Source of the DNA: Schmidtea polychroa | Taxonomy: Eukaryota | Direction: 5' to 3' | Length of the DNA stretch: 64,000 bases | Assembly (NCBI GenBank): GCA_044892525.1 | Contig: CM097885.1 | Location: 29,266,001-29,330,000, forward strand | Shown: positions 12,744 through 52,400 of the stretch, one piece after another | How positions within the stretch are numbered: position 1 is the first letter of the stretch | Layout of the letters: each line of letters opens with the position of its first letter | Position numbers and translations under genes: made by a program | The notes under the pieces: generated by a model | What the model was told of the DNA's origin: nothing | The model's input: only the letters and a program-made list of their open reading frames with translations | Databases searched by the model: none

Positions 12744-12744
12744 A

Positions 12745-17680: not shown

Positions 17681-17686
17681 AGGAGG

Positions 17687-18151
17687 TTGTTCAAGTTATT
17701 TGAAAACCTATGGAAGGACCGAGAAGAGGCTCAACAACAAGCAGAAGGTTTCCGAACCAGAATCGAAAAGATCAAAGGGCGGTGCCGGGAATTCGAAGGC
17801 ACTTGGTTTAGTCCGGCCGAAATGAAGAAAAAGATGTCTCAAATACTACAACTTCAGACTCAAGCCGAACAAGATCAAACTGAAATCCGTGCGTTAAAGT
17901 TACAGATACGCGCGTTAGAAACCAAGCTGAATCAACAACTTATCAACGAGACCACAACAGCACAGATTCGCCCTCTGCCAACCGAGCTGACCGAAATATA
18001 TTCACCGGCTCCGTCAACCAAAACGAAGCGTAAACGGTTAGGGCGAAACACCCGCGAAAAACTAAAGAAACTCCGGGCAAGAGCAGCAAGAGGACCTAAC
18101 CAAAACTCAACCATCAAAGGTGTTGTAACCGAGAATACATTTTGTGATTAA
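17687..18151 (+). pseudogene. ELEGTWFSP-family ORF copy 2 (5' end probably truncated)
   Basis: IEKIKGRCREFEGTWFSPAEMKK, heptad-like region, KRKRLGRNTREKLKKLR basic tract; non-ATG start abutting a Tc1-like remnant. Confidence 0.65.
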
Positions 18152-21100
18152 GCATATAATAAATTAATCAATACGATTGTTTCAACTATATAAAGGAACT
18201 CGAACTCAGAAGCGATCGGTATTCTGGTTCAGGTATAGACGAACAATTTGACAGTAACATTGAGGGGGAAATAAAGTCAGAAGATAGAACTAATGGAAAG
18301 GAAATAAAAAGAACCAAGTAAAGAAAATAGGTGATTATTGTTACAAAACGTGCAGAACCAAAGCGTTTACAGCGAGACTTATTGAATATTCATCATAGGC
18401 ATTTTATTTCGATATTCGGAGTTTTGTAAATTTTAGATTATACGAATTTGAATACAACTGTCCGTTGAGTATGGTTTGTCTAATTGTTTTTACAGAACAC
18501 GTGGAGTCAGACTGTAATATTTATCTAATAAAAATCTCAACAAACTGCTATTTTCATGATCAATGCTATAAACGTATGAATTTTATAAGGTATTTTTTTA
18601 ATTTTCTTTCGATACGTCCTTTATTTTCCTAAAATATTATTGTTACCGTATGTATGTATGTATATATGTAAGTTTTGAATCGTTGTGATAAAATAAAGAA
18701 GTGCATTGCAATCGAAAGTTTGAGGACATGCTGTTTATTGAGAGTTAATTTTGCACATTTGCTCTTAATTGAAACAAACTATTTGTACTAAATATTTTTA
18801 ATTTATATTGTTGTAAAATCTTTCACTATTTCCTAGATCAATACAAGTAAAACAAGTCGGTTCGAAATTGCAACATGAAAAGATATTGAAACCTTTGTCT
18901 CTCCTTACCAGCATCGTCAAGGACATTAGAGATATTAATCGCGTTAATACTGAACGTGTTAGTACTGGTACCAAATTTGCGTTGTACGAATGGTTAAAAA
19001 GTTAAAGGAATTTATTTTTTTGATTTTTTTTACAAATTTTTCGCTAATTTATTAAATTTGAATTTGATAATTTCATTAGTGGGTTAGTCTTATGAAATTA
19101 TTGTAGAAATGATTATTTTATTCTTTTATATTTTTAAACTTGCTAATCCAATTATAATCCAATTCAAAATTTGTTATCAAATTCGCTTAATTTTTGGCAG
19201 TATTACTGAAGCTAGACTTTACTTTTATCGGATCATGTTATCCAGTGCCCTTAACATTTAATATTTCCAATGAAATTCATTATTTTTTAAACATTTCTAA
19301 TGAAATTAATTTATTTCGTGCATAATTGGCTATTGTTAAGGAATTGGAATTCAGTCCAAGTTGGCAAAGCGTCCAATAAGCTTGTTGATATTCACCATTT
19401 CATACAATATTCTAGCATTTTTATCATTTCTATTATAGTTTTAATTTCTAGTTCGTTTTTAACGTTATTTTGTGGAATATTTCCTTTATCGTTTATAAGA
19501 TTCGAACTATTCGGTGGGGCAGAGTCTATGATGGAACTTTTCATGTTCTCGGTTACAAAATGAAAATTAACTCCTATTTGCTTGATATTTTTATTACGGA
19601 ATAAAATTACATTTAACATATTTTAGAAGAAAGTATGAAAATTGATTTGATAAAAATATTTAAATAAAAAGAGCGAGGTGTAATATCTGAATTGTCGTGA
19701 TATAAGGATTACCGAAACTCATATATCGAGAATGAGAAATTATGCATTGCATTTCCACAAATCGTTCATGGGTTTCCTTTACAATTTTTCATTTGGAAAC
19801 ATCTTTAATTTCTTGATTTTCTTAAATATAATTTATAAAATCATATATTATATCTCAAACACTGCTTATTGATACAACAGGAAACAATTCAACATGTCCA
19901 TAATCAGCAAATTAGTGAACAAACGCCAGTTTTACTTCTTAGTGATAAGAGTGGTATGTTGACAATGTGGATTAATACCTCCCATGAATATTTTCTAAGT
20001 TTAAATTTCTGCTAGATGCTAGAGATTTATTATTGTTCTTTGTTTCCGTCTCAAATCCTGGACTATTTTTGTGAGGTTTTCTTATCAAAATTGGTGTTCA
20101 TTTTCAATGAGATGTCATATTGTTCGGAATTTGGTCTCAATAGAAAAGTATATTTATCAATTGCTGATTATAATATCGAAGTCTATTAATAAATGTATTG
20201 CTAGGGTAGCAGAAAATAATTGTTTCCTTTAGTTTAAGCTTGGAGAATTTCATTTCTTAGAAATTCTTTACTGGTAAAAATTTGAGAGACCAAGTTGATT
20301 AACTTTTCAGTAATTATATTCTTTATTTGTGGACATAAATAAATTATCTTTATTTGATCACAAAGAAAATAAACACAAATTTTCTAATTTTTATCAAAAA
20401 ATATGTCAAACTCCATTCTGCAAATTCCATGATGTAACGCATAACCTTCATAAATTGCCATAGTATGTGTCCAGAATATAAAACAATAACAGTAGTTTAT
20501 CTGGGAACATAAAGCGACAGAAAAGCTTGGATGGCAATACCCGTAGCAAGAACCTTGAATGTTTTAAATATTATTGAGATTTTAGGCTAAAACTGAATTA
20601 TAGACCCAAAACTAGTTCAACACAGTCAAAGATACACTAGCCAAGATTATAATTCTTCACTACCTGTGTCATGACCTCCCATTCTCACTCACAACAGGCG
20701 CATTAAATATCGCCGCCGGCTCAGTCGTTCATCAAATTAAAGACAATATATCGCCCAGGCACGATCACTGTCCAACGGTTGTGCTCAAGCCAGAGCCAAC
20801 CATCAATCCAGATCGCATAGCACGGACTCAGGTCGTCAACAATATAAATCAAGCCATCACTCGTTTACGGCGGGTCTAGATGGAAATCGAAGTGGGCTTC
20901 ATTGAGAAAAGAGGCGGTGAGTATTTGTATAAACGCAATGGCGATTGAAGAATGAATTGTTCGAGATATAATACGGACAAACCAAGACACCCGATTTCGT
21001 TTCGTCGAGCCCCAGCGAAAGCGCAGATGTCCCTGTAAAGTCAACCAAAGATTGCATTAGGACTGCTTAAAATTTAATGTGTATAATATAGATTAAATAA

Positions 21101-23592: not shown

Positions 23593-26500
23593 CTAGAATT
23601 TATGACAAGTTAATTTATTTTAAAATTTAAATTACACTATATTTAATTCAATATTTAATATAAGTTTTTAATTTTCTTTTAATTATTAACAGGCGTCACA
23701 AGAGGACAGCGGTTTTGATGTACATATAAAAAGATAAATAAAAATATTTTCATTTTATAATAACTTTGCAATCTCATAATAGATCAAATATATATGAAAA
23801 CTATTTTGGTAACTGGTTGCCACGGCAATCATGGAAAGAGATCAATTGTTGATCACGAGTAAGTTAGTAGATTTATTTCAAGTTAACAAATTCTACAGAA
23901 TAAGATCGATAACGTACACAATATAATTAATAAGTGATTGTGCGATGGGCAGTCAAGTACCCAGTTTCATTGGAACATACTGTGTCTTAAGTAACTATAC
24001 AGTGAACAAACGCATTTATAATATAGGTTGGTGTGCACAACCAATTATAAATGCGCCATTACAGTATATCATAATTACAAAATATTTGTGATGAATTAGT
24101 AAATTTAAGATTAACTATTTTACCATTTTATAAATGGCTTTCAAGTAATTTTTTATATTTAAAGTAAATCTTACGACTTGAATTTTGATCCATATAGATA
24201 TGAGATAATTATTCAAGTTCTTAAATATTACTTTTTATCAATATTTGTATTATAAATCATTTATAAATAATTTTCAGGATCTTTTAAGGATTTTTATGAA
24301 GTTATTTGGAATTATTTCGATATAATGTAAGTCAGATATATTTTAACTATATATAAATAAAGTAATCGCCAAACACAATTCTCATTTCTTTCAAAGATGC
24401 ATAAAAATTGGATTCTACGAAATCCAACAAATTATTTCCCTGTTCTTCTGAAATAATTTGTTTTCTGCTACCTCTTCCTTTTGCAAATTTCTCCATATTT
24501 TTTATATCTGTAAATTATTGTTCCAATCGATTGTTTGGTGATTCTAAATAATCCTCCAAATTCTTCATAATTTTCAACATTTTCAAAGGCATTAATTAGT
24601 CGAAATTTGTCATGTTCTATTAAAAAAACAAATATTAAATTTATTAAAAATTGAAGATAAATCTTACGAAATAATGTCTTTATTATCTATGCAACTCAAA
24701 GTTGAGTTTTCGGAATTTTCGTCAAAATTTTTCGGTCATTTTTTTCTAAAAATGTCTGTAAATGATTTATTATATTGTATTTATTCATTATAAAGATTTT
24801 ACATATCGAAATTGTGAGTGTATTTTTTACTATGTGTTGTCTTTGTGTGTGCCAGTTAATTTTTTCTACCGCTTTCTCACTTTCCATATAAAATGCGTTT
24901 GTTCATTGCAACGCTAAAAATCAACACACAGGTAGGTTTGTATGTTTATATAATATACATGTATTTATTATTTTAGATTATAGATGCGTTTGTTTAATGC
25001 AAACGGGTGAATATTGTGCACCAGACATTTATTTTGCAGCTGCCATGGGGGATTGAAATAATAGCTTAAAATGAAAAAATTAATTTTATTCTGATATTTG
25101 ACCATGGCTGATCTAATCGTTTTCGTTTAAAATGTGAAACAGTAGGGTGATTAGTCACTAAACCTTGACGGTACTGCAGTGTAAAGATAACTTTTGCCAT
25201 GATAAAATAATTAAAATTTACGTATAAAGCAAAATTAATCATCAAAAATTAAATTATTTGAAGTAAAATTAAATAAAATATCTTACTTGAAGTAGTTGTA
25301 GGAGCATAAAACTAATTGGTACATTATATTTATTGGATTCCACATCTTTGTACAAAGTGTATCTGGTATCTACGAATTTAGTAATGGCATTGCATGTTAT
25401 TGGATACGACTCTCCTGATTTCCTGTTGTTTGAATATTTGATTGCGATGGTGTAGTCTCCATGATCCCAGCGTAATTGTTTATTTGAACTTAACAGTAGG
25501 TAGTTAGGAGCCCGCTGCAACAATTGGGGGGTACCCCCCCCCCCCCCCCCTGTTGCACGATTTTTTTTGTTGCGCGATTTTTTTTGTTGCAACTTTTTAT
25601 TACGCAATTGTTCCACACTATAGTGAGGGGGTCTCGATGGTCCTGGGATTTTCAATACAAAAAAAATTTTTCAATACAAAAACGATGGTCCTGGGATTTT
25701 CAATACAAAAAATTTTTTTCTATACAAAAATCCGACTACCACTAAAAAAGCCAAGGATTTATCACACTATAGCGAGGGGGTCTCGATGATCCTGGGATTT
25801 TCAATACAAAAAATTTTTTTCTATACAAAAAGGCGGTCTCACTAAAAAAGCATGGAATTTTCAGACTATAGTGAGCGGGTCTCGATGGTCCTGGGATTTT
25901 CAATACAAAAAATTTTTTTCAATACAAAAACGATGGTCCTGGGATTTTCAATACAAAAAATTTTTTTCTATACAAAAAGGCGGTCTACACTAAAAAAGCA
26001 TGGAATTTTCACATTATAGTGAGGGGGTCTCGATGGTCCTGTGATTTTCAATACAAAAAAATTTTTTTCAATACAAAAAGGCGGTCTCACTAAAAAAGCC
26101 AAGGATTATTCACACTATAGTGAGGGGGTCTCGATGGTCCTGAGATTTTCAATACAAAAAAATTTTTTTCTATACAAAAATCCGACTATCACTAAAAAAG
26201 CATGGAATTTTCAGACTATAGTGAGGGGGTCTCCTTGGTCCTGGGATTTTCAATACAAATTTTTTTTTCAATACAAAAATCCGACTACCACTAAAAAAGC
26301 CAAGGATTTTTCAGACTATAGTGAGGTGAGTCTCCTTGGTCCTGAGAAATAGGTGGTCTACACTAAAAAACGTGGTAAATTTTTCAATTAAAGTAAATAA
26401 TGGTCCAAATTTTAAAATTAAAGTAAATTATGGTTCTAAAAATTAAATTATAGTAAATTATGGCTCAAATTTTTGAATTACAGTAATTAATGGTTCTTAA

Positions 26501-29500
26501 AAATTAAATTACAGTAAATTATGGTCAAAAATTTTGAATTACAGTAAATTATGGTCCAAAAAATTAAATTAAAGTAAATTATGGTCCTAAAAATTGAATT
26601 AAAGTAAATTATGGTTCTAAAAATTGAAATTACAGTAAATTATGGTCTAAAAATTAAATTACAGTAAATTATGGTCAAACATTTTAAATTAAAGTAAATA
26701 ATGGTCCAAAATTTTCAAATACAGTAAATTATGGGTCTAAAAATTAAATTACAGAAAATAATGGTTCTAAAAATTAAATTAAAGTAAATTATGGTTCTAA
26801 AATATTAAATTACAGTAAATTATGGTCCAGATTTTTCAATTAAAGTGAATAATGGTCCAAATTTTTAAATTAAAGTAAATTTAAGTTCTTAAAAATTAAA
26901 TTACAGTAAATAATGGTCCAAATTTTTAAATTAAGTAATCAATGGTAAAAAATTTTAAATAAGTAAATTAAAGTAAATTAAAGTAAGATTTTAAAATTTA
27001 ATTACAAAATAATAGAAGATGTTTGAGAATTGAAATTTTTTAATAGAAATTTTAATGAATTATTTTTCAATGGTAATTTTTAATGGAAATTTTTATGGAA
27101 TAATTTTTTAAGTTAATTTTTAATGGAAATTTTTAAGAAATATTTTTCAATGATAATTTTAGATGGAAATTTTTAAGATAATTTTTATTGAAAATTTTTA
27201 TGAAATATTTTTCAAAGACAAATTTTAATAATAATTCAACAACAAATCAACAACTTAGTACCAACAACCAGTAACTTACGAACATGTATTAACAACCAGT
27301 TACCTACAACTAGTTACTAACAACCAGTTACCTGATACCAGATACCTACCAACTACTTACAACCAAAATCAACCAGATACCTACAACTAGTTACTAACAA
27401 CCAATTACCTGCTACCAAGTACTTACAACTAGATACCACGTACTAAATAACTCTCAAACAACCAAGTACCTACAACAAATTACCAGATACCAAGTACCTA
27501 CAACTAGTTACTAACAACTAGTTACCTGATACTAAGTACCTACAACCACCTAACAAGTACTAACAACCAAAAACAAGCAACCAACCAGGTACCAGATACC
27601 ACCTACTAAGTACCAACAACCAACTAGCTACCAGATACCTACAACTAGATACTAACAACTAGATACCAAGTACCTACAACCACCTACCCATTAACTAGCT
27701 ACCAAGTACTAACAACTAGGTCTCAAACAACTAAATACTAACAACCAGTTACCAACTACAAAGCATTAATTACCTACAACTAGTTACTAACAACTAGATA
27801 CCAAGTACTTACAACCAACATCAACCAGGTACTAAGCATCATCAACTAACTACTAAGTACCTACAACCTACAACTAGATACTAACAACCAGTTACCTGCT
27901 ACCAAGTACTTACAACTAGTTACTAACAACCAACCAACTAGGTACTAGATACCAAGTACTTACAACCAACATCAACCAGGTACTAAGCATCATCAACTAA
28001 CTACTAAGTACCTACAACCTACAACTAGATACTAACAACCAGTTATCTGATACCAAATACTTACAACTAGATACCAAGTACTATCAACCAAAAACAACCA
28101 ACCAACTAGGTACTAGATACCAAGTACTAACAACCAACAACAACCAGGTACTAAGCATTATCAACCAACTAAATACTAAGTACTAACAACCAACCAACTA
28201 GGTACTAGATAGCAAGTACTTACAACCAACATCAACCAACTACTAAGTACTAACAACCAAAAACATGCAACCAACTATCTACCAAGTACTAACAACCAAC
28301 AACAACCAGGTACTAAGCATTAATTACCAACTACTAAGTACCTACAACCTACAACTAGATACCAAGTACTATCAACCAAAAACAACCAACCAACTAGGTA
28401 CTAGATACCAAGTACTCACAACCGACAACAACCAAGTACTAAGCATTATTAACCAACTACTAAGTACCTACAACTAGATACTAACAACCAAAAACAACCA
28501 ACCAACTAGGTACTAGATACCAAGTACTAACAACCTACAACAACTAGGTACTAAGCATTATCAACCAAGTACCTAAAACCACCTAACAAGTACATACAAC
28601 CAACATCAACCAGGTACTAAGCATTAATTACCAACTACTAAGTACCTACCAAGTACATACAACCAACATCAACCAGATACCTACAACTAGATACTAACAA
28701 CCAGTTACCAAGTACCTACAACCACCTACCCATTAACTAACTACAACCAGCTAACAGCAACCAACCAACTACCAAGTACTAACAACCAACAACCAGCTAA
28801 CAACTAACTACCAGATACCAACTACTTACAACCAACAACTAAGTACTAACAACCAGCTAACAACTAGATACCTAGTACTAAGCACTGTCAACTAGATACC
28901 AAGCACTGACAACCAGATGACCACATGAAATTATTGGTTAAATAAGTAAATTAATATTTAATTTTTAAATTAACTAATCAATGGTCTAAAATATTAAAGT
29001 TAAAGTCAATTTAAGATGAAAGTTTTCTGGGATTTTCAATGTTAATTTTAGATGTAAATCTTCGTCTATTAATCAATGACCACGTGAAATTATTAGTTAA
29101 ATATGAAAATAAGGATTATATTTAGTTGTTAAATTAAGAAATAAAGGATAAATAGGTAAATTAAGGATAAGTAAATTAAAGTTAAAAATTTTAAATAAGT
29201 AAATTAAGGTTCAAAATTTTAAATTAAAGAAAACAATGGTTTAAATTTTAAATTAAAGCTAAATGAGTAAATTAAAGTAATGTAATAAGTAAATTAAACT
29301 AAGATTTTTAAATTTATTTTCAAAAGATTGAATAACCACCAACTTTTTTGAGAAATGTAATTTTTAATGAAAATTTAAATGGAATAATAATAATAATAAT
29401 AATAATTCATCAGTTACCAACAATCGGTTACTAAATATTTTTAACTAGGTGTTGACAAATAAGTACCAAATACTTACAACTAGATACCATGTACTAACTA

Positions 29501-32500
29501 ACTCTCAAACAACCAAGTAAAAACAATCAAGTACCAACAATCAACTAAATATTCTTCATTGTATTTTATGAATTGTTTTTTAAATTAATTTTTTATCTAT
29601 CTTCAAAAATATGTTTAATTACAATCAGTAGAAAACCCTTTTCAAATTTAACAAAAATGTTGATTTTCATCAAAAAACCACAACTCAACCACTTTAAAAC
29701 ACTACGTGAAATTCAAAATAATTACAATGAAAGACAAATGAATTCTAATTTACAAAACATTCTTCTTTTAAATGATAACTACTGACATATTATTGCAATG
29801 TAAAATTCGCATTCAATAAATACTTATTGTTGATCAGTTTTATTATATATACTATGAGTTTATCCGACAGGATGTTTTGACCCCCTAAGGGTACTGGTCG
29901 TAAGGGTACTGGTCGTAAAGGTACTAGTCGTAAGGGTATTGGTAACACTCAACCACCACCTACCCATTAAGGAGTTACTATCAATCAGCTAACAACTAGA
30001 TACCATGTACTAACAACCACCATCAACCAGATACTAAGCATTATCAACCTACAACTATATAACAACAATCAGTAAACAACACTATACCAACTACCAAATA
30101 TAAGATACCAACAACATAGTATCATCAACCAGTAACTTACGAAGATGTACTAACAACCAACAACTATGTACTAACAAATTGATCTTTAAAAGCAAATACT
30201 CATCACTTGAAAAATTAGATGGAAAATTAATTGAACTCAAGGCATCAATAACTAGGTAAAATTTGATTAAATTATTGTAAAAATTTAAATTATTCAAAAT
30301 AAATATCATAAAAATTTAATTAATGGACAGGAAAAAATTCTAATCATTAATCATCCAGTAAATAAAAAAAATACTGATCATTCAAGTTGAATCAACTAAG
30401 ATAATAAATTAATAAAAGTTTTGAAATAAGATCTAGATTTAGATCGAATAAAATTAATTTTAATTATTTTTGTAAAAGTAATACATGTACTCAAATTGAT
30501 TAACTGATTTCTCAATATATTCAAAAAATCTGTATGAATTCATTACAATCATCAAAGTCAGCAATCTACAATAAAAATAATTATCATTAAATTCCAAAAG
30601 AGACTAGAAAACTAATGATAACGTCTAACAAACCAGTAAATTCATTCAAATGACAATAATTGGTATAACCTAGTGAATTCTCCAATAAAATCATCTAAAA
30701 AGCATCAAATTTTCCTGAAATATCTCTATCTTTTAAGATTAGTATCTTATCGATAAGTACTTGTTAAAGATCATATATTCACCTCAAACTAAAAAGATTC
30801 CTTAAAATCCCTTAAATGACTATATTTCTACCCTTAATCCATATTATTACAAATATTTCACTAAAATCATCTAAAAACCATCAAATTTCCCTGAAATAAC
30901 TCTATCTTTAAAGATTAGTATTTTATCGATAAATATCCTTAAAAGGTTATATATTTACCTCAGACTAATAAGATTGCTTAAAATCCCCTTTAAATGTCTA
31001 TAATTCTAACTTTAATTCATATTATCACGAATATTTCCCTATAAAACATGTAAAATAATTTGGTCATTAACTCTAAATAATTTATAAAATCTAATGATAA
31101 AACCAGTTATAATAAAATTTTTGTTAATCACTGTAAATTTTTGTAAATCACTGTACTCGAAATTTAAAATAAATATAACTGACTAGGTCCCATTGAAAGA
31201 TTAAATATATTCATTCAATTAAATAAATTTCTTCAAATGGTCAACTTTTGTCGTTGTTCGTCTAAATAAAGATGAAAATAATTTAAAGTTGATATCAATC
31301 CCAATTATCTATAAAGATTTCATTGTCAAAACTAAGTAAAACGATCATTATCCCTACTTAATAAAACATAAATCTAAATTAATTTACTGTGCATTAATCA
31401 CAATCTAATAAAACGATATAATTTCACATTATTATTGATTCATAACTGACTAATGTTAATTGACATTTCCCTTAAAACATTGATATTTTACCAACATCGT
31501 CCTTAAAAAATCATATATTCCCATCTTAACCCATCCTTCATTAAATTTAACCGACTATATCTCCCTTACAATGATATATTCCTACCTTATCCTATCTCTC
31601 ATTAAATCTAACCGAATATATCCCCCTAAAAGATCATATTTTCCCCATCTTAACCCATCTCTCAGCAAATCTAAACCGACAATATCCCATCTTAACTGAT
31701 CTCTCAGCAAATATTTCTACCCTTTTAAACATCAATCTGATTATATTCCTTAATTCTACCCACTTGAGGTTATATCCTCCTTTTATATATATCAATCCTC
31801 TTAAAATCCTTAGAGAACTTCAAAAATATGACTTAATTGTTATAGACACCAAATATTCTTCCATCGAAATAATTTAGTAGCTATGTAGTAAGAGCCCACT
31901 AACCAATCAAAATCGTGGAAGGGTAGGAAAAAATATATTACGTTGCGGTATTTTAAAAGTTAAATATATTTTAAAAACACATTTTGACGCTAAAGTCGAC
32001 TTATGTAACACACATAATAAACTCATTATTTCTTACAAATATTTACCATCAAATACCTAACTAGAGATGATATATATTGTTTGATCATAATTCTTCATCG
32101 ATTCAGCCAATCATTTTCAAGCAAACTAAATTTCAGTATATTCTACAATCATTTTCATGTAAATTTAAAGTTAACTGGTTTCTTAGCTTATGTTTTTTAA
32201 AGTTCATCAATGAGTAAATATTCTTAGAAAATTATTGAAAAAAAAAATTATTTAGTCAAATACATTACAAAGTTATCATCAAAAATCACTTAATTATTAA
32301 CCTAATTGTCAATGAAATTAATTTTTATTTAAAAACTATTCAATAAAATACAACTAATTATCAAGAAATTTATCACCATTAAAACTTTAAATCAGTCAAC
32401 ATGAAATTCTTAGAAAATTATTCAATATCCTCATAAAAATTTATCCTACCACTTGATTATTGTACAAACTCTAATTATTAACCTCATTAAAAATTAAAAA

Positions 32501-35500
32501 TACATCCAATTATCAAGAAATTAATTAAATTTATCTTAGAACTAACTTTAAATTATTAAAATATTCATTCAATAATCATGAAATCCACAAAAATAATAGA
32601 AATCCACAAAAATGATAAAAATTCATGAAAATGATAGAAATTCATAAAAAACGATAAACATTCATAAAAATTATAGCAATTCGCAAAAATAATAGGAAAT
32701 TCACGAAAATGATAGATATCCACAAAAATTACAGATATTCACAAAAATTATGGAAATTCATGAAAATGATGGAAATCCACAAAAAACGATAAAAATTCAC
32801 AAAAATGATAGAAATTTACTTGAATAAAACCATCAACTCTAAAAATTATCAACGAATGCCTTAAACATCAAATTTGTCTAAATAATCATTCAAATAAAAG
32901 CATTAAATACCTTTACGACTAATACCCTTGCGACATGTTGAATGTGAGTAGTACCCTTGTGAGCAATACCCATAGGGGGACAGAATATTTTGTCGGATAA
33001 ACTCAGAGTATATATTAATTAACTCATTCTTCATTGAATCAGTAAAATTATCATAAATTTCGATAAAAAATCTTATGTGGTAAGCAATGTAAAATGAAAA
33101 GAGAAATATTCTTTAAACTTTGATAAAATTAACAATGAAGGTGGTAAGAATCTTCATTAAAGTGAGGAAATTATTCATTACTCGATGATAAATTCAAATG
33201 GGTGAAAATAATTGGTAGAATAATTCATTAATGGATCATGAGAGGTAAATAATGAGAAGTGGCATAGATAAGATGAAGGTTGATAAGAATGGAAATATAT
33301 TATTTAAAATTATTTCATAAAATTCATATATTTAATAAAAAAAAACTTTTAAAACAAATATTTGTGGGGATGTTTTAAGTGAATAATTAATCAAAATTGG
33401 TGGAATATAAGTAGAAAATCGGGGGGTGAGGGTTATAAGTGAATAACTAATGGAGAATCGGGGGAATATAGGAGATTAAATAGTGGGATAATGAGAATCG
33501 GTGGAATATAAGTGAGAAGGATATGTAATTTAAACTATTTTATTACGTAACAAGCCGCGACTATTTTATTACATAACAAGCTGTGAATGATATTTTACCA
33601 ACATTTTACCTAGTATATAATTTTAATTTTAATTATATTTTTAAATTGTATATATTTTCAATATCATTCTATTGTTTAATACCAATAATAAGTATAAAAA
33701 GTATATAATGATTATTAAATTAATATCTTGTTAACATTTATTTGAGAATTTAAAAAACTTTACTTAAAATTAGTGAAGTATTTAATTTTGATTGTATTTT
33801 ATAAGATATATATTCGAGTATTAGCTTATTTTGATTAAATATTTAATATTATGATGATTGTTTTCTAAATTAAAATTTTTTTTTAGTGTAAAATAGTAAA
33901 TTTAATAATATATAGCTATTATTACAAGTACTTATTCAACAAAAAAACTTTTTATTTCAATTGTCTTATTCCATCAATAAGATAAAGTCTATATCTGGTA
34001 ATAGATTAATTTCTGATTTACATTATTTGAGAATTTGAAAAACTTATAAAATTTATATTTTTAAAATTTAATTTTGATTGTATATTCTAAGAATTATATT
34101 TGAATATTTAACTTATTTTGAATGAAAAGGGTAATATATATATTATTATCTTTTATGATAATTGTTTTTGAAATACATTATGCAAATTAAAACATTTTAG
34201 TAATAATTTGCTATTATTTTAGAATTTATTTTAGTCAAAAATTAAAAAAAAATGACCTATTCCATACTTCTTAATCAAATACCATTCACAGCTTGTTATG
34301 TAATAAAATAGACACGGCTTGTTATGTAATAAACTAGTTTAAATTACATATCCTTCTCACTTATATTCCACCAATTCTCAATATTCCACTAATTATTATC
34401 ACTAATATCCCCCTGATTTCCACTATTTAATCATTTGTATCCCCTCGATTTTGATTAATTATTCCCCACAAATATTTCTTTTAAGATTTTTTTATTAAAT
34501 TTATGAATTTTATGAATTAATTTTAAATAAATTCAATTAATATATTTGCATTCTTATCAACCTTCATCTTATCTATGCCACTTCTCATTATTTACCTCTC
34601 ATGATCCATTAATGAATTATTCTACCAATTATTTTCACCCATTTGAATTTATCATCGAGTAATGAATAATTTCCTCACTTTAATGAAGATTCTTACCACC
34701 TTCATTGTTAATTTTATCAAAGTTTAAAGAATATTTCTCTTTTCATTTTACATTGCTTACCACATAAGATTTTTTATCGAAATTTATGATAATTTTACTG
34801 ATTCAATGAAGAATGAGTTAATTAATATATACTCTGAGTTTATCCGACAAAATATTCTGTCCCCCTATGGGTATTGCTCACAAGGGTACTACTCACATTC
34901 AACATGTCGCAAGGGTATTAGTCGTAAAGGTATTTAATGCTTTTATTTGAATGATTATTTAGACAAATTTGATGTTTAAGGCATTCATTGATAATTTTTA
35001 GAGTTGATGGTTTTAGTAAATATTCAAGTAAATTTCTATCATTTTTGTGAATTTTTATCGTTTTTTGTGGATTTCCATCATTTTCATGAATTTCCGTAAT
35101 TTTTGTGAATATCTGTAATTTTTGTGGATATCTATCATTTTTGCGGATTTCTATTATTTTCCGTAATTTTTGTGAATATCTGTAATTTTTGTGGATATCT
35201 ATCATTTTCGTGAATTTCCTATTATTTTTGCGAATTGCTATAATTTTTATGAATTTTTATCGTTTTTTGTGAATTTCGATCATTTTCATGAATTTTTATC
35301 ATTTTTGTGGATTTCTATTATTTTTGTGGATTTCATATTTATTGAATGAATATTAAATAATTTAAAGTTAGTTCTAAGATAAATTTAATTAATTTCTTGA
35401 TAATTGGATGTATTTTTAATTTTTAATGAGGTTAATAATTAGAGTTTGTACAATAATCAAGTGGTAGGATAAATTTTTATGAGGATATTGAATAATTTTC

Positions 35501-38500
35501 TAAGAATTTCATGTTGACTGATTTAAAGTTTTAATGGTGATAAATTTCTTGATAATTAGTTGTATTTTATTGAATAGTTTTTAAATAAAAATTAATTTCA
35601 TTGACAATTAGGTTAATAATTAAGTGATTTTTGATGATAACTTTGTAATGTATTTGACTAAATAATTTTTTTTTTCAATAATTTTCTAAGAATATTTACT
35701 CATTGATGAACTTTAAAAAACATAAGCTAAGAAACCAGTTAACTTTAAATTTACATGAAAATGATTGTAGAATATACTGAAATTTAGTTTGCTTGAAAAT
35801 GATTGGCTGAATCGATGAAGAATTATGATCAAACAATATATATCATCTCTAGTTAGGTATTTGATGGTAAATATTTGTAAGAAATAATGAGTTTATTATG
35901 TGTGTTACATAAGTCGACTTTAGCGTCAAAATGTGTTTTTAAAATATATTTAACTTTTAAAATACCGCAACGTAATATATTTTTTCCTACCCTTCCACGA
36001 TTTTGATTGGTTAGTGGGCTCTTACTACATAGCTACTAAATTATTTCGATGGAAGAATATTTGGTGTCTATAACAATTAAGTCATATTTTTGAAGTTCTC
36101 TAAGGATTTTAAGAGGATTGATATATATAAAAGGAGGATATAACCTCAAGTGGGTAGAATTAAGGAATATAATCAGATTGATGTTTAAAAGGGTAGAAAT
36201 ATTTGCTGAGAGATCAGTTAAGATGGGATATTGTCGGTTTAGATTTGCTGAGAGATGGGTTAAGATGGGGAAAATATGATCTTTTAGGGGGATATATTCG
36301 GTTAGATTTAATGAGAGATAGGATAAGGTAGGAATATATCATTGTAAGGGAGATATAGTCGGTTAAATTTAATGAAGGATGGGTTAAGATGGGAATATAT
36401 GATTTTTTAAGGACGATGTTGGTAAAATATCAATGTTTTAAGGGAAATGTCAATTAACATTAGTCAGTTATGAATCAATAATAATGTGAAATTATATCGT
36501 TTTATTAGATTGTGATTAATGCACAGTAAATTAATTTAGATTTATGTTTTATTAAGTAGGGATAATGATCGTTTTACTTAGTTTTGACAATGAAATCTTT
36601 ATAGATAATTGGGATTGATATCAACTTTAAATTATTTTCATCTTTATTTAGACGAACAACGACAAAAGTTGACCATTTGAAGAAATTTATTTAATTGAAT
36701 GAATATATTTAATCTTTCAATGGGACCTAGTCAGTTATATTTATTTTAAATTTCGAGTACAGTGATTTACAAAAATTTACAGTGATTAACAAAAATTTTA
36801 TTATAACTGGTTTTATCATTAGATTTTATAAATTATTTAGAGTTAATGACCAAATTATTTTACATGTTTTATAGGGAAATATTCGTGATAATATGAATTA
36901 AAGTTAGAATTATAGACATTTAAAGGGGATTTTAAGCAATCTTATTAGTCTGAGGTAAATATATAACCTTTTAAGGATATTTATCGATAAAATACTAATC
37001 TTTAAAGATAGAGTTATTTCAGGGAAATTTGATGGTTTTTAGATGATTTTAGTGAAATATTTGTAATAATATGGATTAAGGGTAGAAATATAGTCATTTA
37101 AGGGATTTTAAGAAATCTTTTTAGTTTGAGGTGAATATATGATCTTTAACAAGTACTTATCGATAAGATACTAATCTTAAAAGATAGAGATATTTCAGGA
37201 AAATTTGATGCTTTTTAGATGATTTTATTGGAGAATTCACTAGGTTATACCAATTATTGTCATTTGAATGAATTTACTGGTTTGTTAGACGTTATCATTA
37301 GTTTTCTAGTCTCTTTTAGAATTTAATGATAATTATTTTTATTGTAGATTGCTGACTTTGATGATTGTAATGAATTCATACAGATTTTTTGAATATATTG
37401 AGAAATCAGTTAATCAATTTGAGTACATGTATTACTTTTACAAAAATAATTAAAATTAATTTTATTCGATCTAAATCTAGATCTTATTTCAAAACTTTTA
37501 TTAATTTATTATCTTAGTTGATTCAACTTGAATGATCAGTATTTTTTTTATTTACTGGATGATTAATGATTAGAATTTTTTCCTGTCCATTAATTAAATT
37601 TTTATGATATTTATTTTGAATAATTTAAATTTTTACAATAATTTAATCAAATTTTACCTAGTTATTGATGCCTTGAGTTCAATTAATTTTCCATCTAATT
37701 TTTCAAGTGATGAGTATTTGCTTTTAAAGATCAATTTGTTAGTACATAGTTGTTGGTTGTTAGTACATCTTCGTAAGTTACTGGTTGATGATACTATGTT
37801 GTTGGTATCTTATATTTGGTAGTTGGTATAGTGTTGTTTACTGATTGTTGTTATATAGTTGTAGGTTGATAATGCTTAGTATCTGGTTGATGGTGGTTGT
37901 TAGTACATGGTATCTAGTTGTTAGCTGATTGATAGTAACTCCTTAATGGGTAGGTGGTGGTTGAGTGTTACCAATACCCTTACGACTAGTACCTTTACGA
38001 CCAGTACCCTTACGACCAGTACCCTTAGGGGGTCAAAACATCCTGTCGGATAAACTCATAGTATATATAATAAAACTGATCAACAATAAGTATTTATTGA
38101 ATGCGAATTTTACATTGCAATAATATGTCAGTAGTTATCATTTAAAAGAAGAATGTTTTGTAAATTAGAATTCATTTGTCTTTCATTGTAATTATTTTGA
38201 ATTTCACGTAGTGTTTTAAAGTGGTTGAGTTGTGGTTTTTTGATGAAAATCAACATTTTTGTTAAATTTGAAAAGGGTTTTCTACTGATTGTAATTAAAC
38301 ATATTTTTGAAGATAGATAAAACATTAATTTAAAAAACAATTCATAAAATACAATGAAGAATATTTAGTTGATTGTTGGTACTTGATTGTTTTTACTTGG
38401 TTGTTTGAGAGTTAGTTAGTACATGGTATCTAGTTGTAAGTATTTGGTACTTATTTGTCAACACCTAGTTAAAAATATTTAGTAACCGATTGTTGGTAAC

Positions 38501-41500
38501 TGATGAATTATTATTATTATTATTATTATTCCATTTAAATTTTCATTAAAAATTACATTTCTCAAAATAGTTGGTGGTTATTCAATCTTTTGAAAATAAA
38601 TTTAAAAATCTTAGTTTAATTTACTTATTACATTACTTTAATTTACTCATTTAGCTTTAATTTAAAATTTAAACCATTGTTTTCTTTAATTTAAAATTTT
38701 GAACCTTAATTTACTTATTTAAAATTTTTAACTTTAATTTACTTATCCTTAATTTACCTATTTATCCTTTATTTCTTAATTTAACAACTAAATATAATCC
38801 TTATTTTCATATTTAACTAATAATTTCACGTGGTCATTGATTAATAGACGAAGATTTACATCTAAAATTAACATTGAAAATCCCAGAAAACTTTCATCTT
38901 AAATTGACTTTAACTTTAATATTTTAGACCATTGATTAGTTAATTTAAAAATTAAATATTAATTTACTTATTTAACCAATAATTTCATGTGGTCATCTGG
39001 TTGTCAGTGCTTGGTATCTAGTTGACAGTGCTTAGTACTAGGTATCTAGTTGTTAGCTGGTTGTTAGTACTTAGTTGTTGGTTGTAAGTAGTTGGTATCT
39101 GGTAGTTAGTTGTTAGCTGGTTGTTGGTTGTTAGTACTTGGTAGTTGGTTGGTTGCTGTTAGCTGGTTGTAGTTAGTTAATGGGTAGGTGGTTGTAGGTA
39201 CTTGGTAACTGGTTGTTAGTATCTAGTTGTAGGTATCTGGTTGATGTTGGTTGTATGTACTTGGTAGGTACTTAGTAGTTGGTAATTAATGCTTAGTACC
39301 TGGTTGATGTTGGTTGTATGTACTTGTTAGGTGGTTTTAGGTACTTGGTTGATAATGCTTAGTACCTAGTTGTTGTAGGTTGTTAGTACTTGGTATCTAG
39401 TACCTAGTTGGTTGGTTGTTTTTGGTTGTTAGTATCTAGTTGTAGGTACTTAGTAGTTGGTTAATAATGCTTAGTACTTGGTTGTTGTCGGTTGTGAGTA
39501 CTTGGTATCTAGTACCTAGTTGGTTGGTTGTTTTTGGTTGATAGTACTTGGTATCTAGTTGTAGGTTGTAGGTACTTAGTAGTTGGTAATTAATGCTTAG
39601 TACCTGGTTGTTGTTGGTTGTTAGTACTTGGTAGATAGTTGGTTGCATGTTTTTGGTTGTTAGTACTTAGTAGTTGGTTGATGTTGGTTGTAAGTACTTG
39701 CTATCTAGTACCTAGTTGGTTGGTTGTTAGTACTTAGTATTTAGTTGGTTGATAATGCTTAGTACCTGGTTGTTGTTGGTTGTTAGTACTTGGTATCTAG
39801 TACCTAGTTGGTTGGTTGTTTTTGGTTGATAGTACTTGGTATCTAGTTGTAAGTATTTGGTATCAGATAACTGGTTGTTAGTATCTAGTTGTAGGTTGTA
39901 GGTACTTAGTAGTTAGTTGATGATGCTTAGTACCTGGTTGATGTTGGTTGTAAGTACTTGGTATCTAGTTGTTAGTAACTAGTTGTAGGTAATTAATGCT
40001 TAGTAGTTGGTAACTGGTTGTTAGTATTTAGTTGTTTGAGACCTAGTTGTTAGTACTTGGTAGCTAGTTAATGGGTAGGTGGTTGTAGGTACTTGGTATC
40101 TAGTTGTTAGTATCTAGTTGTAGGTATCTGGTAGCTAGTTGGTTGTTGGTACTTAGTAGGTGGTATCTGGTACCTGGTTGGTTGCTTGTTTTTGGTTGTT
40201 AGTACTTGTTAGGTGGTTGTAGGTACTTAGTATCAGGTAACTAGTTGTTAGTAACTAGTTGTAGGTACTTGGTATCTGGTAATTTGTTGTAGGTACTTGG
40301 TTGTTTGAGAGTTATTTAGTACGTTGTATCTAGTTGTAAGTACTTGGTAGCAGGTAATTGGTTGTTAGTAACTAGTTGTAGGTATCTGGTTGATTTTGGT
40401 TGTAAGTAGTTGGTAGGTATCTGGTATCAGGTAACTGGTTGTTAGTAACTAGTTGTAGGTAACTGGTTGTTAATACATGTTCGTAAGTTACTGGTTGTTG
40501 GTACTAAGTTGTTGATTTGTTGTTGAATTATTATTAAAATTTGTTTTTGAAAAATATTTCATAAAAATTTTCAATAAAAATTATCTTAAAAATTTCCATC
40601 TAAAATTATCATTGAAAAATATTTCTTAAAAATTTCCATTAAAAATTAACTTAAAAAATTATTCCATAAAAATTTCCATTAAAAATTACCATTGAAAAAT
40701 AATTCATTAAAATTTCTATTAAAAAATTTCAATTCTCAAACACCTTCTATTATTTTGTAATTAAATTTTAAAATCTTACTTTAATTTACTTTAATTTACT
40801 TATTTAAAATTTTTTACCATTGATTACTTAATTTAAAAATTTGGACTATTATTTACTGTAATTTAATTTTTAAGAACTTAAATTTACTTTAATTTAAAAA
40901 TCTGGACCATAATTTACTGTAATTTAATATTTTAGAACCATAATTTACTTTAATTTAATTTTTAGAACCATTATTTACTGTAATTTAATTTTTAGACCCA
41001 TAATTTACTGTATTTGAAAATTTTGGACCATTATTTACTTTAATTTAAAATGTTTGACCATAATTTACTGTAATTTAATTTTTAGACCATAATTTACTGT
41101 AATTTCAATTTTTAGAACCATAATTTACTTTAATTCAATTTTTAGGACCATAATTTACTTTAATTTAATTTTTTGGACCATAATTTACTGTAATTTAAAA
41201 TGTTTGACCATAATTTACTGTAATTTAATTTTTAGACCATAATTTACTGTAATTTCAATTTTTAGAACCATAATTTACTTTATTCAATTTTTAGGACCAT
41301 AATTTACTTTAATTTAATTTTTTGGACCATAATTTACTGTAATTCAAAAATTTTGACCATAATTTACTGTAATTTAATTTTTAAGAACCATTAATTACTG
41401 TAATTCAAAAATTTGAGCCATAATTTACTATAATTTAATTTTTAGAACCATAATTTACTTTAATTTTAATATTTGGACCATTATTTACTTTAATTGAAAA

Positions 41501-44500
41501 ATTTACCACGTTTTTTAGTGTAGACCACCTATTTCTCAGGACCAAGGAGACTCACCTCACTATAGTCTGAAAAATCCTTGGCTTTTTTTAGTGTAGACCA
41601 GCTTTTTGTATTGAAAATATCCTGAGACCTTAAATTACCACGTTTTTTAGTGTAGACCACCTATTTCTCAGGACCAAGGAGACTCACCTCACTATAGTCT
41701 GAAAAATCCTTGGCTTTTTAGTGTAGAACAGCTTTTTGTATTGAAAATATCCTGAGACCTTAAATTACCACGTTTTTTAGTGTAGACCACCTATTTCTCA
41801 GGACCAAGGAGACTTACCTCACTATAGTCTGAAAAATCCTTGGCTTTTTTAGTGGTAGTCGGATTTTTGTATTGAAAAAAAAATTTGTATTGAAAATCCC
41901 AGGACCAAGGAGACCCCCTCACTATAGTCTGAAAATTCCATGCTTTTTTAGTGATAGTCGGATTTTTGTATAGAAAAAAATTTTTTTGTATTGAAAATCC
42001 CAGGACCATCGAGACCCCCTCACTATAGTGTGAATAATCCTTGGCTTTTTTAGTGAGACCGCCTTTTTGTATTGAAAATCCCAGGACCATCGTTTTTGTA
42101 TTGAAAAAATTTTATTTGTATTGAAAATCCCAGGACCATCGAGACCCGCTCACTATAGTCTGAAAATTCCATGCTTTTTTAGTGAGACCGCCTTTTTGTA
42201 TTGAAAAAAATTTTTTTGTATTGAAAATCCCAGGACCATCGTTTTTGTATTGAAAAAATTTTATTTGTATTGAAAATCCCAGGACCATCGAGACCCCCTC
42301 ACTATAGTGTGATAAATCCTTGGCTTTTTTAGTGGTAGTCGGATTTTTGTATAGAAAAAAATTTTTTGTATTGAAAATCCCAGGACCATCGTTTTTGTAT
42401 TGAAAAATTTTTTTTGTATTGAAAATCCCAGGACCATCGAGACCCCCTCACTATAGTGTGGAACAATTGCGTAATAAAAAGTTGCAACAAAAAAAAATCG
42501 TGCAACAAAAAAAATCGTGCAACAAAAAAAATCGTGCAATAGGGGGGGTAACCCCCCCCCCCCCCAATTGTTGCAGCGGGCTCCTAACTACCTACTCTTA
42601 ACGTATCCATTGACAGTGATCTGACGATGAGAAGGAGTATCAGCAGCCGCTTTACGAGATTGATTGTTCGTAATGCCCACTTGGTGATGTATTTCTTTGA
42701 TCTACAAATTGTTCCAATTGCAGAGGTTTGGGTACATTTTTTATTTATTAAAGGATGTAGGTGTTTGAAAGAATGTCGATATATAAGAATATTAAAACAA
42801 TATATTTTAATTTAATTAATTTAATAATGTATTTGAAATTTAAGTATTAAATTAATATATTTATTAATTTGAAAGTCAGAGGCACTACAGTAGTCACTCA
42901 TACAGCCCGAGAATCATAAACGAGAATATTCATAAAATTTGAAATTGCTATTTAATTTGATTACATTGATTTTAAATAATTATTTGTACACGTATTTGCA
43001 ATGAAGAAAAACTTCTGTAATCTAAAAACTCGATATACTTGTATTATAGAAACACAAACATAACTATATGCTGAATTTTAATATTACATAGTATAAACTT
43101 TTTCAAGAAAAAACAGTAAATGATAAGGACGAATTTCAATTTAAAGGTTATTTTACAAAAAAGTTTATTTTTATTTAACTTAAAAAGTCAATATAAAAAC
43201 CTAAAAAGATTATTTTATGAATATTCGCCATTTTGTTCATAATTCATAAATAAAATGAAAATACGTTGTAAAATAATACAAAAACATCAAATTTAAGTAA
43301 ATTATTAAAATTTATTGAAATTGTAAAAAAATCCAAATAGAACATTCATAATTTTATTAAAAATAATTAATGACAAGTTATGAATCAAATATAGATTTGC
43401 ATACTAACTTGTATTATAGAAGTTTTTATTCCATGCAAACGTGTATAAATAAACGGCAAACTGTTAGGCGGGCACAGGAGTGACCAAAGAGACTAAAATC
43501 CAAGATTGACTTGACGAGTCGCTACTTTGTCGACTATTTTTGTGCAGCAATATAATTTAAATTGTGCCATATCAATTTATTATTTATCGTTTGTAGAGAT
43601 GAGATATATTTTTGACGTGCTTTTTAGTATCAGTACCTCGGTACACAAGGTTAATAATAAAAATTATGTAGATCAAATTGGTTTGAACTCATTCATCATT
43701 TCGAAATTATTTTGACTTATAAGATTTCCGTTAATTCATTGTAATGAAAGACATGCAAAATATAAAAATAACATTTACAGAATTAAACAACCATATAGAT
43801 ATAATAATTAGATGAGTAAAAAATCTTTGAGGGCCGCGTGTTTGAAATGAATAAATATTTGAAGACAAGCAAAAATATTTACCATTTCAATTCGGATTTA
43901 CCTTCTTCATTCTGGCTTGAATGATGACTGGCTCGCAATTTTGATAACAACTCAGTCGAATCTAATGATGCATTTACCGCTAGTTGTTTTGGAATCGTCA
44001 ACAGAGATCGTGCATATTCAGCAATAGCTATTTGTTCCTTCGACCCCATTGTTGTCGCAAAATCTTCCAAAAACACTGAAAGTGCAACCTCACATGCCCC
44101 ACCGCCTGGTACTACTGATTTGCTTTCAAGAACACGTTTTATCACACACAAAGCATCATGCATAGATCTCTCCATTTCGTCTACATAAAAGTCATTAGCT
44201 CCTCGCAATAAGATACTCGCAGCAGAGCGAGTTTTCGTATTTTTAATGATGATCATTTCATCGTCACAGACTCTTCGTTGAAATACTTCTTCCGCCTAAA
44301 TTATAATATTAACCAATGAGATCTAATTAGATTAAATTTTTTACTTTATTTATTTTCATTAAAAATGAAATATATCAATAACCACAAATTTTCGGTTTAG
44401 CCTTTATCAAGTGTTTTTTAATTTTATCTATTACATATAATTTATTAAAATTAGTTTTGATTAAAAAATTATGAACACAAATCAGAATCTAAAAATTAAA

Positions 44501-49400: not shown

Positions 49401-52400
49401 ACTAATAAAAATTCATAATTGTTGAAGAAATATTTTCCTACTTTTGGATTAGTTAATTATTGAATGAAAATAATTCAAAAGTTTTGTAATATTATTAATT
49501 GCCCATATCGTGAACATTTTTTTTTATGAATTATTAGGGGATAACCGAAGTCCGATCCGGAATCCGCACCGCACCGGATAGTGACCTCAACTAACTATTC
49601 GATATCTGTGCGCCGAGGACTACCGACCCGAATAGTTAAAATCGAACGAATTGTCCGGGAGCCTTATTTTTAGCTTTTTACATTAAGCATCCAATAACAG
49701 GATTGTACCACCAGCTTCGAATAATACAGAGATTAATTGCAGAAACAATTGCAAATGTTATATTTATTATTGATTATCTTCAAAGTTATTTTCAAAAAAT
49801 TAGAAACATATAAGTAGGTTAATGGTTTCTTTTACCAACTATTCGTACCGTATCCGGAATCTGAAACATCAGAATTTAGAAATCCGGAATCCGGAATCGA
49901 CAGAAAAAACAAATTCGGTTATTCCCTATGAATTGTATAACCACATTAATAAATTATATATAAAAATATAAAAATAATCATGATAATCATCCATAATAAT
50001 TATTAAAATGATCAATATTTATTATATTTATAACAATATCAATATGTAAAAGATTTATTTTTTGTTACCCAAGCTTTTTTATCACTTATATTATTGAGAG
50101 CTAAATGGAATGATGATTACGGGTACCGATCCGAACTTGAGGCACTCTGTGTTTTGCTATTCCTAGATAGCAACTGAAATAAATATTATTTACAATATCT
50201 GAATCTGTCATTCTCTCTCTCTCAAATGAAATTGAAATAGTACAAATTTTGTTTGGTTTGATGGTTTTGGCGTGCTCGATAGCTTGTGATAACTGTACGA
50301 CGCCAACACGCGCAGCTTAGAAATAACATTGACTGTCCAGTAATTGTAATGGGATATTTGATTTCTCTGACTCCTACATTATACATTTCTTTCATGAATG
50401 CCAGAGTGCTCATATCATATTAGTGCATGTGTTGCAATTATACATTTAACAGGTATATTGTCTACTTTCCATTAATTAATCTTTCACGTTATTGTCATTT
50501 ATTCTTTATCGGATTTTTAAAAATAATTTTATATGAACCTTTCATTAAGAATAGGAATTAAATGTCTTTACAAGAATAATTGATATTCAATTTAAAATAA
50601 ACTATTAGCAAGTTAATTTTACTTACTTCACCTAACATTGATGGATCATAGCTTTCTTCTTCTCTATCCAAAGTTGACATTGTACATAACAGTGATCCGC
50701 CAGTTGCTTTAGCAATTCGTTTCAAATCAACCTTTTTGCATCGCCTTACTGCCATTGTATTAGATTCAACAAAGTATTTCATGCACAAATCATCAATTCC
50801 CCCTGTTGTCAAAATCACGTTTGCACCTGCTTTTAAAATCTTCTCAATACGCTCTTTTGTGATATCAGATTCTCTTTTGCGAATCTCATCTAATTTGTCA
50901 GGATCTGTCACCAAAATCTGAACACCTAATTTTAATCGAGTTTTTTGTAAATTAAAATCGAGCAAAGCAATTTTAGCTTTATTTATGTAGCGTGGCATTT
51001 GCAAACTGGAGACAGTGCAATTTATTGCATAACCATTGACAATTTCGCTCTCGCGCATAGATTTTCCATGAGCCTTTAAGATGTTGATGGAGTTGATAGG
51101 ATAGTAGAAGGTACCATCACCATTCGGTGTCTTGACAGCCATTGCAGCATCAACTGCCATTTTGGCAAAGAAATTCGAATCCCTATTTTATTAAAATATA
51201 TTAAATATAATTTAAGATTTAAACAAATAATATATATATAAATTTAATATTTTAATTATAAATTTTTTTCCCCTGCATAATTTTGATTAGATCAATATTT
51301 CAGTACAACATAAAAGACTTAAGCAAGGGACTTTAGTGCATGCAGTTTATTATCATGTTTTTTTCTGGGCCAAAACACATCCGTTTTATGATGGTTACTT
51401 ATAATAATTGTTTAATAATATTGAATAATATTCATATTTTCTGTTCTAAATTAATTACTAAATATTATTTTCAATCTAGAATGATTGAAAATATTGTACG
51501 TTTTGAATGATTGACATAATTTGTATATAATTTCATTTCAATTCTGTATGAAATTAACGAGAATTACAATTTCAATTTTAATTGTTTCGTTACAATTCGT
51601 TACAACATAAATTTAATTTTTGGTTATTATTGGCTCTGTGACAATGGTATTCAATAACTATAATTATTAATAATTTAATGCAATATTTTTCTCGTAATCA
51701 TAGTTGTTAAATAAATATAACCAACGAGTCCCAGTATAATATGAGAAATTCGAATAATATTTAATTTTAATAATTACTTAACACTATGGTCTTCAACCTT
51801 TCGCGGCCGCCGGAAACCTATTTTTTTATTTTTGATTTTATTTTTGTTTTTTATTTTGTTTTTATTTTTTTATTTTTGTATATAAAAAGTTATAGAAAAC
51901 AAATAATAATAAAGTAAATATAAAAATACTCAATGATTAGGTTGAGCTTTTTTATTACAAATTATATTAAAATCTGGTATAATTTCTCTTTTCATATGAA
52001 AAATTTAATTTTTCCTCAAAAAATCTTTGATAATTGAATATGCACTTTTTAAATTTTCGCTAAATAAACAATTTCTCAATGTCAGTGTAGAAATTCATAA
52101 ATTTCCAATGCGTAAATTTGAATTTATGCATATATATTTACTGAAAAGAAAATATTCTCGCAGAACCCTTAATTTATGATTTCGTCGAACCTAGATTCCT
52201 TTGTTAAAATGCTATATCTTTTTAAACCTTTCAATTTACTCGCAATTTAACAAATAATAACAGATGAATCCCCTTTAAGGAAATAATTTACAGCATTAAA
52301 CAAATTAGCCTTTTCCATCAAGTTTACAAATCTTAAACAAAATGTTTGGGTTTCACAAAATCAATGAGAATTAATCAAAATGTAATTAATTGAATTAGTG

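Follow-up and report, generated by a model that had tools for sequence, protein, structure and literature searches.

The window analysed here is a stretch of 64,000 nucleotides of Schmidtea polychroa DNA (G000:C1:29266001-29330000, in a genome of 781 Mb). It contains an element of 17,102 bp (window 25495-42596) that has the ends and the 6-bp target site duplication of a Polinton (Maverick), consists almost wholly of two inverted arms and lacks the Polinton genes. That it is a non-autonomous Polinton derivative, as a first-pass annotation of the stretch had proposed, is far more certain than the mechanism by which it came about. For the mechanism we infer, as a reasonably probable explanation, a palindromic Polinton satellite, in which each step, from copying and insertion by a helper to shaping by fold-back and template switching and maintenance near helper length, is reconstructed from sequence comparison.

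Structure of the element and its insertion site

The element starts AGTAGGTAGTT and ends AACTACCTACT, and both copies of CTTAAC that had been reported to flank a unit of this length were located (25489-25494 and 42597-42602, plus strand). The inverted arms, of 8.1 kb on the left (25495-33595, plus strand) and 8.3 kb on the right (34277-42596, minus strand), make up 96% of the element, close to the earlier estimate of about 95%, and enclose a spacer of 681 bp (33596-34276). The longest stop-to-stop frame has 112 codons, and frames for a polymerase, integrase, packaging ATPase or capsid protein were not found in the element. When 43 frames of coding Polintons were compared with it by tblastn, the sole match was a frame within the shared terminal repeat array and no gene remnant appeared. 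The first-pass annotation was therefore right that integrase, protein-primed polymerase, ATPase and capsid frames are missing, and an autonomous Polinton/Maverick is ruled out for the window element.

The affinity to Polintons is established by coding copies in the same genome, which are the candidate helpers. A polymerase search of the genome gave 8,821 candidates, and all 91 that were scored lay above the cut-off. In one coding Polinton (E14) the exact 28-bp ends of the window element surround polymerase, integrase and ATPase frames. In others (A2 and B1-B10) the ends are related and approximately 1.7 kb of terminal arrays is common to them and the window arm, the remainder not being shared. 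The end motif AGTAGGTAG, an imperfect AGT/AGG repeat, is present in coding copies as well, and two of the 28-bp end variants occur in coding and gene-less copies alike. All ten ordinary coding copies in which both ends were found have 6-bp duplications (the left end of B3 was not found). Shared ends, the common terminal sequence and the 6-bp duplications thus agree with the proposed classification. Genes of the coding Polintons match PF03175, rve and Pox_A32; PF03175 was absent from the hmmscan results for four full-length polymerase frames, although the genome search had placed all four above the cut-off. A 407-aa frame of these Polintons has 138 homologues. The model of its protein, built from 112 sequences (predicted local distance difference test score 91.9), matches capsid proteins of iridovirus, PBCV-1, Sputnik and mavirus (E 5e-15 to 5e-12), and a double jelly-roll capsid protein is predicted.

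The window arms are assembled from tandem modules. The left terminus (25495-25613), with its AGTAGGTAG start, G/C homopolymers and 17-bp repeats, is identical to E14 in its first 28 bp and is presumed to be the origin and integrase site. It is followed, all on the plus strand, by sub-terminal tandem arrays of 48/100-bp, 30-bp and 13-bp units (25614-27236), common to the terminal repeats of coding Polintons until arm position ~1,740, and by a degenerate 7/14-bp (ACCAACT-type) minisatellite (27250-28923) that was seen, among the copies examined, in the gene-less family only. The inner non-coding arm (28924-31898) holds a duplicate of a sub-terminal block and 14/15-bp, 176-bp and 61-bp repeats, and blocks of it served for the comparison of arms. 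Next comes a module (31899-32907) that matches (76-79%) a stretch just upstream of the polymerase gene in P3, one of the palindromic Polintons treated below; 66-170 bp of it are present in P1, P2 and P4. The innermost left arm (32908-33595) is ~5% diverged from its mirror copy and has 26-bp repeats at its end. The spacer, or loop, is AT-rich, contains two diverged copies of a ~290-bp period and is found in many family members. The right arm is the left arm inverted, except that in the outer 1.5 kb its arrays have lengths of their own, and unit number and sequence are unlike between the arms. The arm core (26995-32550 versus 35360-40740) aligns over 5,378 bases with 7 substitutions and a single gap of 151 bp, and the innermost 600 bp has 26 substitutions in 552. 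Possibly by chance, several near-copies of the terminal 13-mer, reversed inward and with 2 mismatches, also lie within the minisatellite (27250-28923 and 38990-40512).

The element lies within a multicopy target repeat of ~490 bp (467 candidates), the left part of which is at 25296-25488 and the right part at 42603-42889. All 14 paralogues of this repeat that were examined cross from left flank to right flank over one CTTAAC-like site, 13 of them with a BLAST hit to the right flank. Since the flanks rejoin as one repeat with a single such site, the insertion is real. An assembly artefact arising from fold-back reads or collapsed repeats is very improbable: distinct flanks join into one known repeat, the arms differ in substitutions and array lengths (polishing could still inflate their identity), and the same centre recurs at many loci with different duplications. 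Palindromes are nevertheless hard to assemble, and the junction contigs in public runs fall below the bridging threshold. These runs consist of short contigs, and X4-X7 may derive from the source sample of the assembly itself. Among the contigs listed, exact junction contigs, which also speak against an artefact, are present in X4 and X5, each with 27 letters of the element and so below the 31-letter bridging threshold. A 58-letter contig in X1 and X2 passes from left flank into right flank with no difference, which, as the target is multicopy and the contig is below the same threshold, is a hint of an empty allele in these two runs.

Elsewhere in the window we observed a remnant of a Ty3/Gypsy-like retrotransposon (56255-58589; zf-CCHC, RVT_1, RNase H), hAT-related remnants (4419-5630 and 13436-14068; Dimer_Tnp_hAT and a weak DUF4371) and an uninterrupted frame of 209 codons with a TCP-1/cpn60 chaperonin match (50558-51187; E 2e-42), which is either a host exon or a retrocopy. 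Old dispersed repeats at 17330-17615, 24290-24589, 24126-24375 and 54205-54465 are 71-74% alike and bear no relation to the element.

A dispersed family of gene-less palindromes

The terminal 28-mer of the element has 64 exact copies in the genome (its reversed control has none), and an inner-arm 24-mer occurs 392 times, which implies a family of at least ~200 copies. Genome searches with arm segments returned 1,035-1,161 first-look candidates. Among the first 100 listed places of the 24-mer, 33 pairs face as in the window and none the opposite way, and the spacing is 6.0-8.6 kb in 25 of the 33 (7.27 kb in the window). Our sample of gene-less copies was made up of 20 end-anchored pairs and 16 spacer-anchored loci, the latter from the 40 best spacer hits. 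Two end-anchored pairs of 44-46 kb were left out, and for S1 and S2 one or both ends are missing within the sequence range taken.

With the window copy included, both ends were found for 33 gene-less copies, and 30 of these are flanked by a perfect 6-bp duplication; one of the 30 duplications lies in an AT run and is ambiguous, and the two halves of another are 320 kb apart. One further copy has a single mismatch and two have no duplication. The duplicated sequences vary, contain TTAA in only 2 of the 33 and include no TTAA-only 4-bp duplications, which rules out a TTAA-specific transposon of the piggyBac/Kolobok-like kind. In copies that keep the spacer the palindrome turns at the identical place, and it is therefore inherited and moves as a unit. 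Different loci share this centre with different duplications, and the centre of the element is an inherited family trait. Together with the single site in the target paralogues, this upholds the earlier suggestion of integration as one unit.

The duplications and ends also bear on the idea that we are dealing with a foldback element, Mutator- or P-related, whose Polinton-like ends arose by chance. Arms of tandem-repeat modules around a non-coding middle are indeed described for the foldback element Tetris (PMC4079207). The duplications given there are 8-10 bp long, however (PMC4079207), against 6 bp in 30 of 33 copies here, and ~1.7 kb of terminal sequence in common with coding Polintons contradicts chance ends, so that we give this idea very little credence.

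Gene-less copies that bear the spacer measure 16,480 ± 1,252 bp (n = 14) and coding copies 16,857 ± 599 bp (n = 10; Mann-Whitney p 0.52, copies with nested insertions excluded), in a sample that is skewed towards close relatives of the window copy and towards long open polymerase frames and for which shared descent could give the same result, a point that counts against a length actively held. The full Polinton length noted in the first-pass annotation is thus seen in the means. For a second end type on contig C1, 28 of 39 pairs, coding and gene-less mixed, span 15.5-18.5 kb. The central junctions of short copies match only themselves in both cases tested (among the 40 best-scored candidates), and such single-copy junctions fit deletion after insertion. 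A giant element resembling a miniature inverted-repeat transposable element, cut and pasted by a Polinton integrase with neither polymerase copying nor packaging, would account for the direct tie to the helper, which consists of the ends and the 6-bp duplication only. It would leave unexplained the 8-kb arms and the length peak at helper size, as well as the matching of ends within each copy across >15 variants and the exchange of ends with coding copies described below, and we judge it improbable.

Some loci of the family have features of their own. At G000:C1:25669843-25690881 the inner-arm marker occurs three times on one strand at ~6.67-kb spacing and is followed by a mirrored copy, a tandem amplification of the arm. 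At L165 and L172 (G000:C1:181335731 and 181655855) a left and a right end with the common duplication CATTAG are separated by 320 kb; both loci have a spacer and a truncated second arm, which represents a rearrangement or an assembly error. Copy E6 (L042-L043) contains at element positions 4437-19725 a nested element of 15.3 kb with direct terminal repeats of 1,547 bp that show 1 difference, and no frame of at least 180 codons in the pieces scanned. Among coding copies, E3 and E13 were considered as long-armed coding parents and rejected, as what they contain are nested Polintons that belong to another end type and bear separate duplications. The integrase gene is interrupted at L098, L060 and L135-L153, and the nested family in E13 has an unbroken integrase frame. 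A TATA-binding-protein-like frame is present in coding Polintons from two end families (L098:6913-7386 and L057:5904-6470; PF00352, E 3e-16 and 3e-17), and a 108-aa frame at L098:5714-6037 matches the adenovirus mu core protein (PF05829, E 2e-6).

Origin and upkeep of the palindrome

Six palindromic Polintons of 7.4-18.1 kb have polymerase sequence in both arms, and all have perfect 6-bp duplications (in G000, C1:235383158-235396433, C3:32532201-32547693, C1:126056156-126072149, C1:139677856-139690446, C1:264964907-264972309 and C1:186707364-186725444). They comprise all five head-to-head polymerase pairs of the genome search, each a whole palindrome, and B8, the one palindrome among ten further copies chosen for long frames. 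At least two end families are represented; P2-P5 have a terminal array type with no ordinary coding copy among those fetched, and P2-P4 are 92-97% alike across their first 6 kb. P5 and B8 are collinear with their coding relative A2 until the turn. In P5 the turn is a 5-nt overlap at a natural hairpin of the coding relative (-6.7 kcal/mol; 0.8% of 1,112 windows are as strong). In P3 the module just upstream of the polymerase matches window 31899-32907, and the distance from the terminal arrays to this module is ~4.7 kb in both elements, which ties the gene-less family to the polymerase-only palindromes.

The arms of individual copies are mostly closer to each other than to those of other copies. 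The two window arms show a single difference over a 520-bp block, in which the divergence from the nearest other copy is 3.9% and the median divergence 6.5%. For 31 copies a block could be measured in both arms: in 21 of them no measured block differs by more than 1.5%, and in the other 10 one or more blocks differ by 2-14%. Seven of these ten keep a perfect duplication although their arms are 2-11% apart in one block or more, a pattern that fits recombination before insertion. Most copies have matching 28-mers at their two ends, and the copies together show >15 variants (the E set of copies was chosen on one 28-mer variant). Ends have also been exchanged between gene-less copies and coding elements. 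T3 is the sister of the window copy in the inner-arm tree (98/90), and its left end has 71% of its 21-mers in common with coding B7, against 35% for the best-matching gene-less copy. A single clade of copies with the T3-type end is disfavoured (p-AU 0.0097; one arm per copy, 33 rows), a test that is supporting only, as a previous tree of that block was already known when the group was named.

The same family and helper could be accommodated if the arms were kept alike in the chromosome, by host gene conversion or break repair, and if length were inherited from the founder and not selected. Conversion tracts would leave the highest similarity in the middle of an arm and lower similarity at its edges, and the similarity of the window arms does peak mid-arm and drop at both edges. 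In addition, arm copying after insertion reaches flanking DNA in copy S9, and the tandem modules are common by descent. Against this, one-sided nested insertions survive in the arms. For arms of two lineages within one perfect duplication, and likewise for the polymerase palindromes whose duplications are perfect, very long conversion tracts would be required unless the events took place before insertion. Nested long terminal repeats (LTRs) in E6 (LTRs 1/1,547 versus arms 13/3,958) and E5 (2/314 versus 26/3,364) give no sign of extra evening-out after insertion, although two cases make a weak test. We consider this chromosomal explanation unlikely, if the most probable of the alternatives.

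Under the satellite explanation that we prefer, the protein-primed polymerase of a helper would copy the element and a helper integrase would insert the copy, both in trans, as the ends, the duplications and the end exchange suggest. Polinton replication is itself inferred from adenoviruses and tectiviruses. The founder may derive from a nascent strand that folded onto itself and was extended on its own sequence as far as the end, a step to which the hairpin at the P5 turn points. Its genes would then have been lost, with tandem repeats of similar length in their place. During free replication, displaced strands could form long hairpins in which template switching would even out both arms and both ends of one molecule, and template switching could also bring in arms and ends of co-replicating molecules. 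A length of ~16-18 kb would be maintained if favoured by the helper capsid or by replication, and shorter copies would mostly be deletions after insertion.

Several observations weigh against this explanation. The turn of B8 is a 2-nt overlap with no hairpin, P1-P4 are chimeric at the centre, and P3 could be a recombinant. The likeness to a snap-back defective genome, put forward in the first-pass annotation, applies to P5 and B8 and does not extend directly to the window element: past ~1.7 kb its arm is non-coding and absent from the ordinary coding copies examined, and it is therefore not newly derived by snap-back from a coding Polinton of today. As this part of the arm holds no gene remnant, descent from a coding end depends on the one module shared with P3. 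Twelve spacer-less gene-less copies span 1.9-14.0 kb, and the polymerase palindromes likewise vary widely in length. The outer arrays of the window are unlike between its arms (21-mer overlap 0.49). S9 measures 21,015 bp between its ACTTAA copies and its mirrored tract runs 3.6 kb into its own flank, which means that arms can be copied after insertion. All 11 coding copies with the same ends have an integrase frame that is broken by in-frame stops, three per copy in ten of them and four in the eleventh, which is either a natural feature or a shared defect. A free, protein-capped or packaged form of the element is hypothetical, and so are its replication and packaging by a helper. As a separate observation, S9 (L160/L131/L132/L161, G000:C2:151158085-151182721) lies within another Polinton-ended element, and its whole mirrored tract is 11 kb.

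A bolder version, which we put forward tentatively and hold to be less probable than not by some way, is that the family is a heritable, gene-less satellite virus of a polintovirus. It would have been founded by fold-back, stuffed with repeats to helper length, packaged in helper capsids and renewed at its ends by recombination with an active helper, possibly as a defective interfering genome that limits this helper. If so, the genome would hold every stage of a series that begins with fresh snap-backs (P5 and B8), continues with palindromes that have polymerase only (P2-P4) and ends with the gene-less form.

Comparison with known systems

A description of a gene-less, wholly palindromic Polinton family of helper length was not found in the open literature searched, the scope of which did not include the founding Polinton papers, supplements, Repbase and Dfam. 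Within it, the form seems undescribed; non-autonomous derivatives, snap-back genomes and foldback structure are known ideas. A gene-less family with many copies as long as the helper, fold-back junctions and exchanged ends would preserve a natural record of copying by strand displacement, of recombination and perhaps of a limit on size. It offers abundant and specific DNA targets for the detection of free or packaged forms, by which Polinton replication and packaging become testable, and a handle on the self-copying of these little-studied elements. Hundreds of palindromes of 16-18 kb are also a likely source of rearrangements, and gene-based annotation misses them.

In its AGT-type ends, 6-bp duplications, length of ~17 kb and the terminal 1.7 kb in common with coding copies, the window element resembles Polintons/Mavericks. 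It differs from them in being gene-less, in its inverted repeats of 8.1-8.3 kb and in an end (AGTAGG) that is not a perfect (AGT)2. Vertebrate Mavericks are reported to average 16,862 bp with inverted repeats of 46-1,447 bp, and a size constraint has been proposed for them; the same source states that animal Polintons encode capsids and that particles had not been observed (PMC8097293). Polinton inverted repeats in general are given as 100-1,500 bp (PMC10748475; general ranges also in PMC6431247). Butterfly polintons with ~2-kb repeats are described as carrying genes (10.1101/2025.02.07.637071), and a C. elegans form is described in which a polymerase adjoins the terminal repeat and an integrase is absent (10.1101/2024.01.15.575659).

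With other non-autonomous Polintons the family shares its dependence on a helper. Short non-autonomous Polintons are present in Repbase. Tlr1 is at times regarded as a non-autonomous polinton (PMC5499653), but it encodes genes, whereas the gene-less family has full helper length and is almost wholly palindromic. Foldback elements (FB, Galileo, Tetris) have similarly long modular inverted arms, tandem repeats and a non-coding middle; they differ from the 8-kb arms, 6-bp duplications and Polinton ends seen here, and Tetris, for which a Mutator origin is suggested, is described with arms of at most 1,735 bp and duplications of 8-10 bp (PMC4079207). Snap-back or copy-back genomes are known in adeno-associated virus and RNA viruses (PMC13506859; 10.1101/2020.10.20.346957). 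Like these, the palindromes described here would consist of one end copied back and would need a helper, and P5 and B8 fit the comparison directly. In contrast to snap-back viral genomes, the gene-less family consists of hundreds of integrated, heritable copies whose centre is fixed and whose interior is replaced by repeats, and the collinearity with a helper that in a snap-back genome extends to the turn is limited in the window element to ~1.7 kb and the one module shared with P3.

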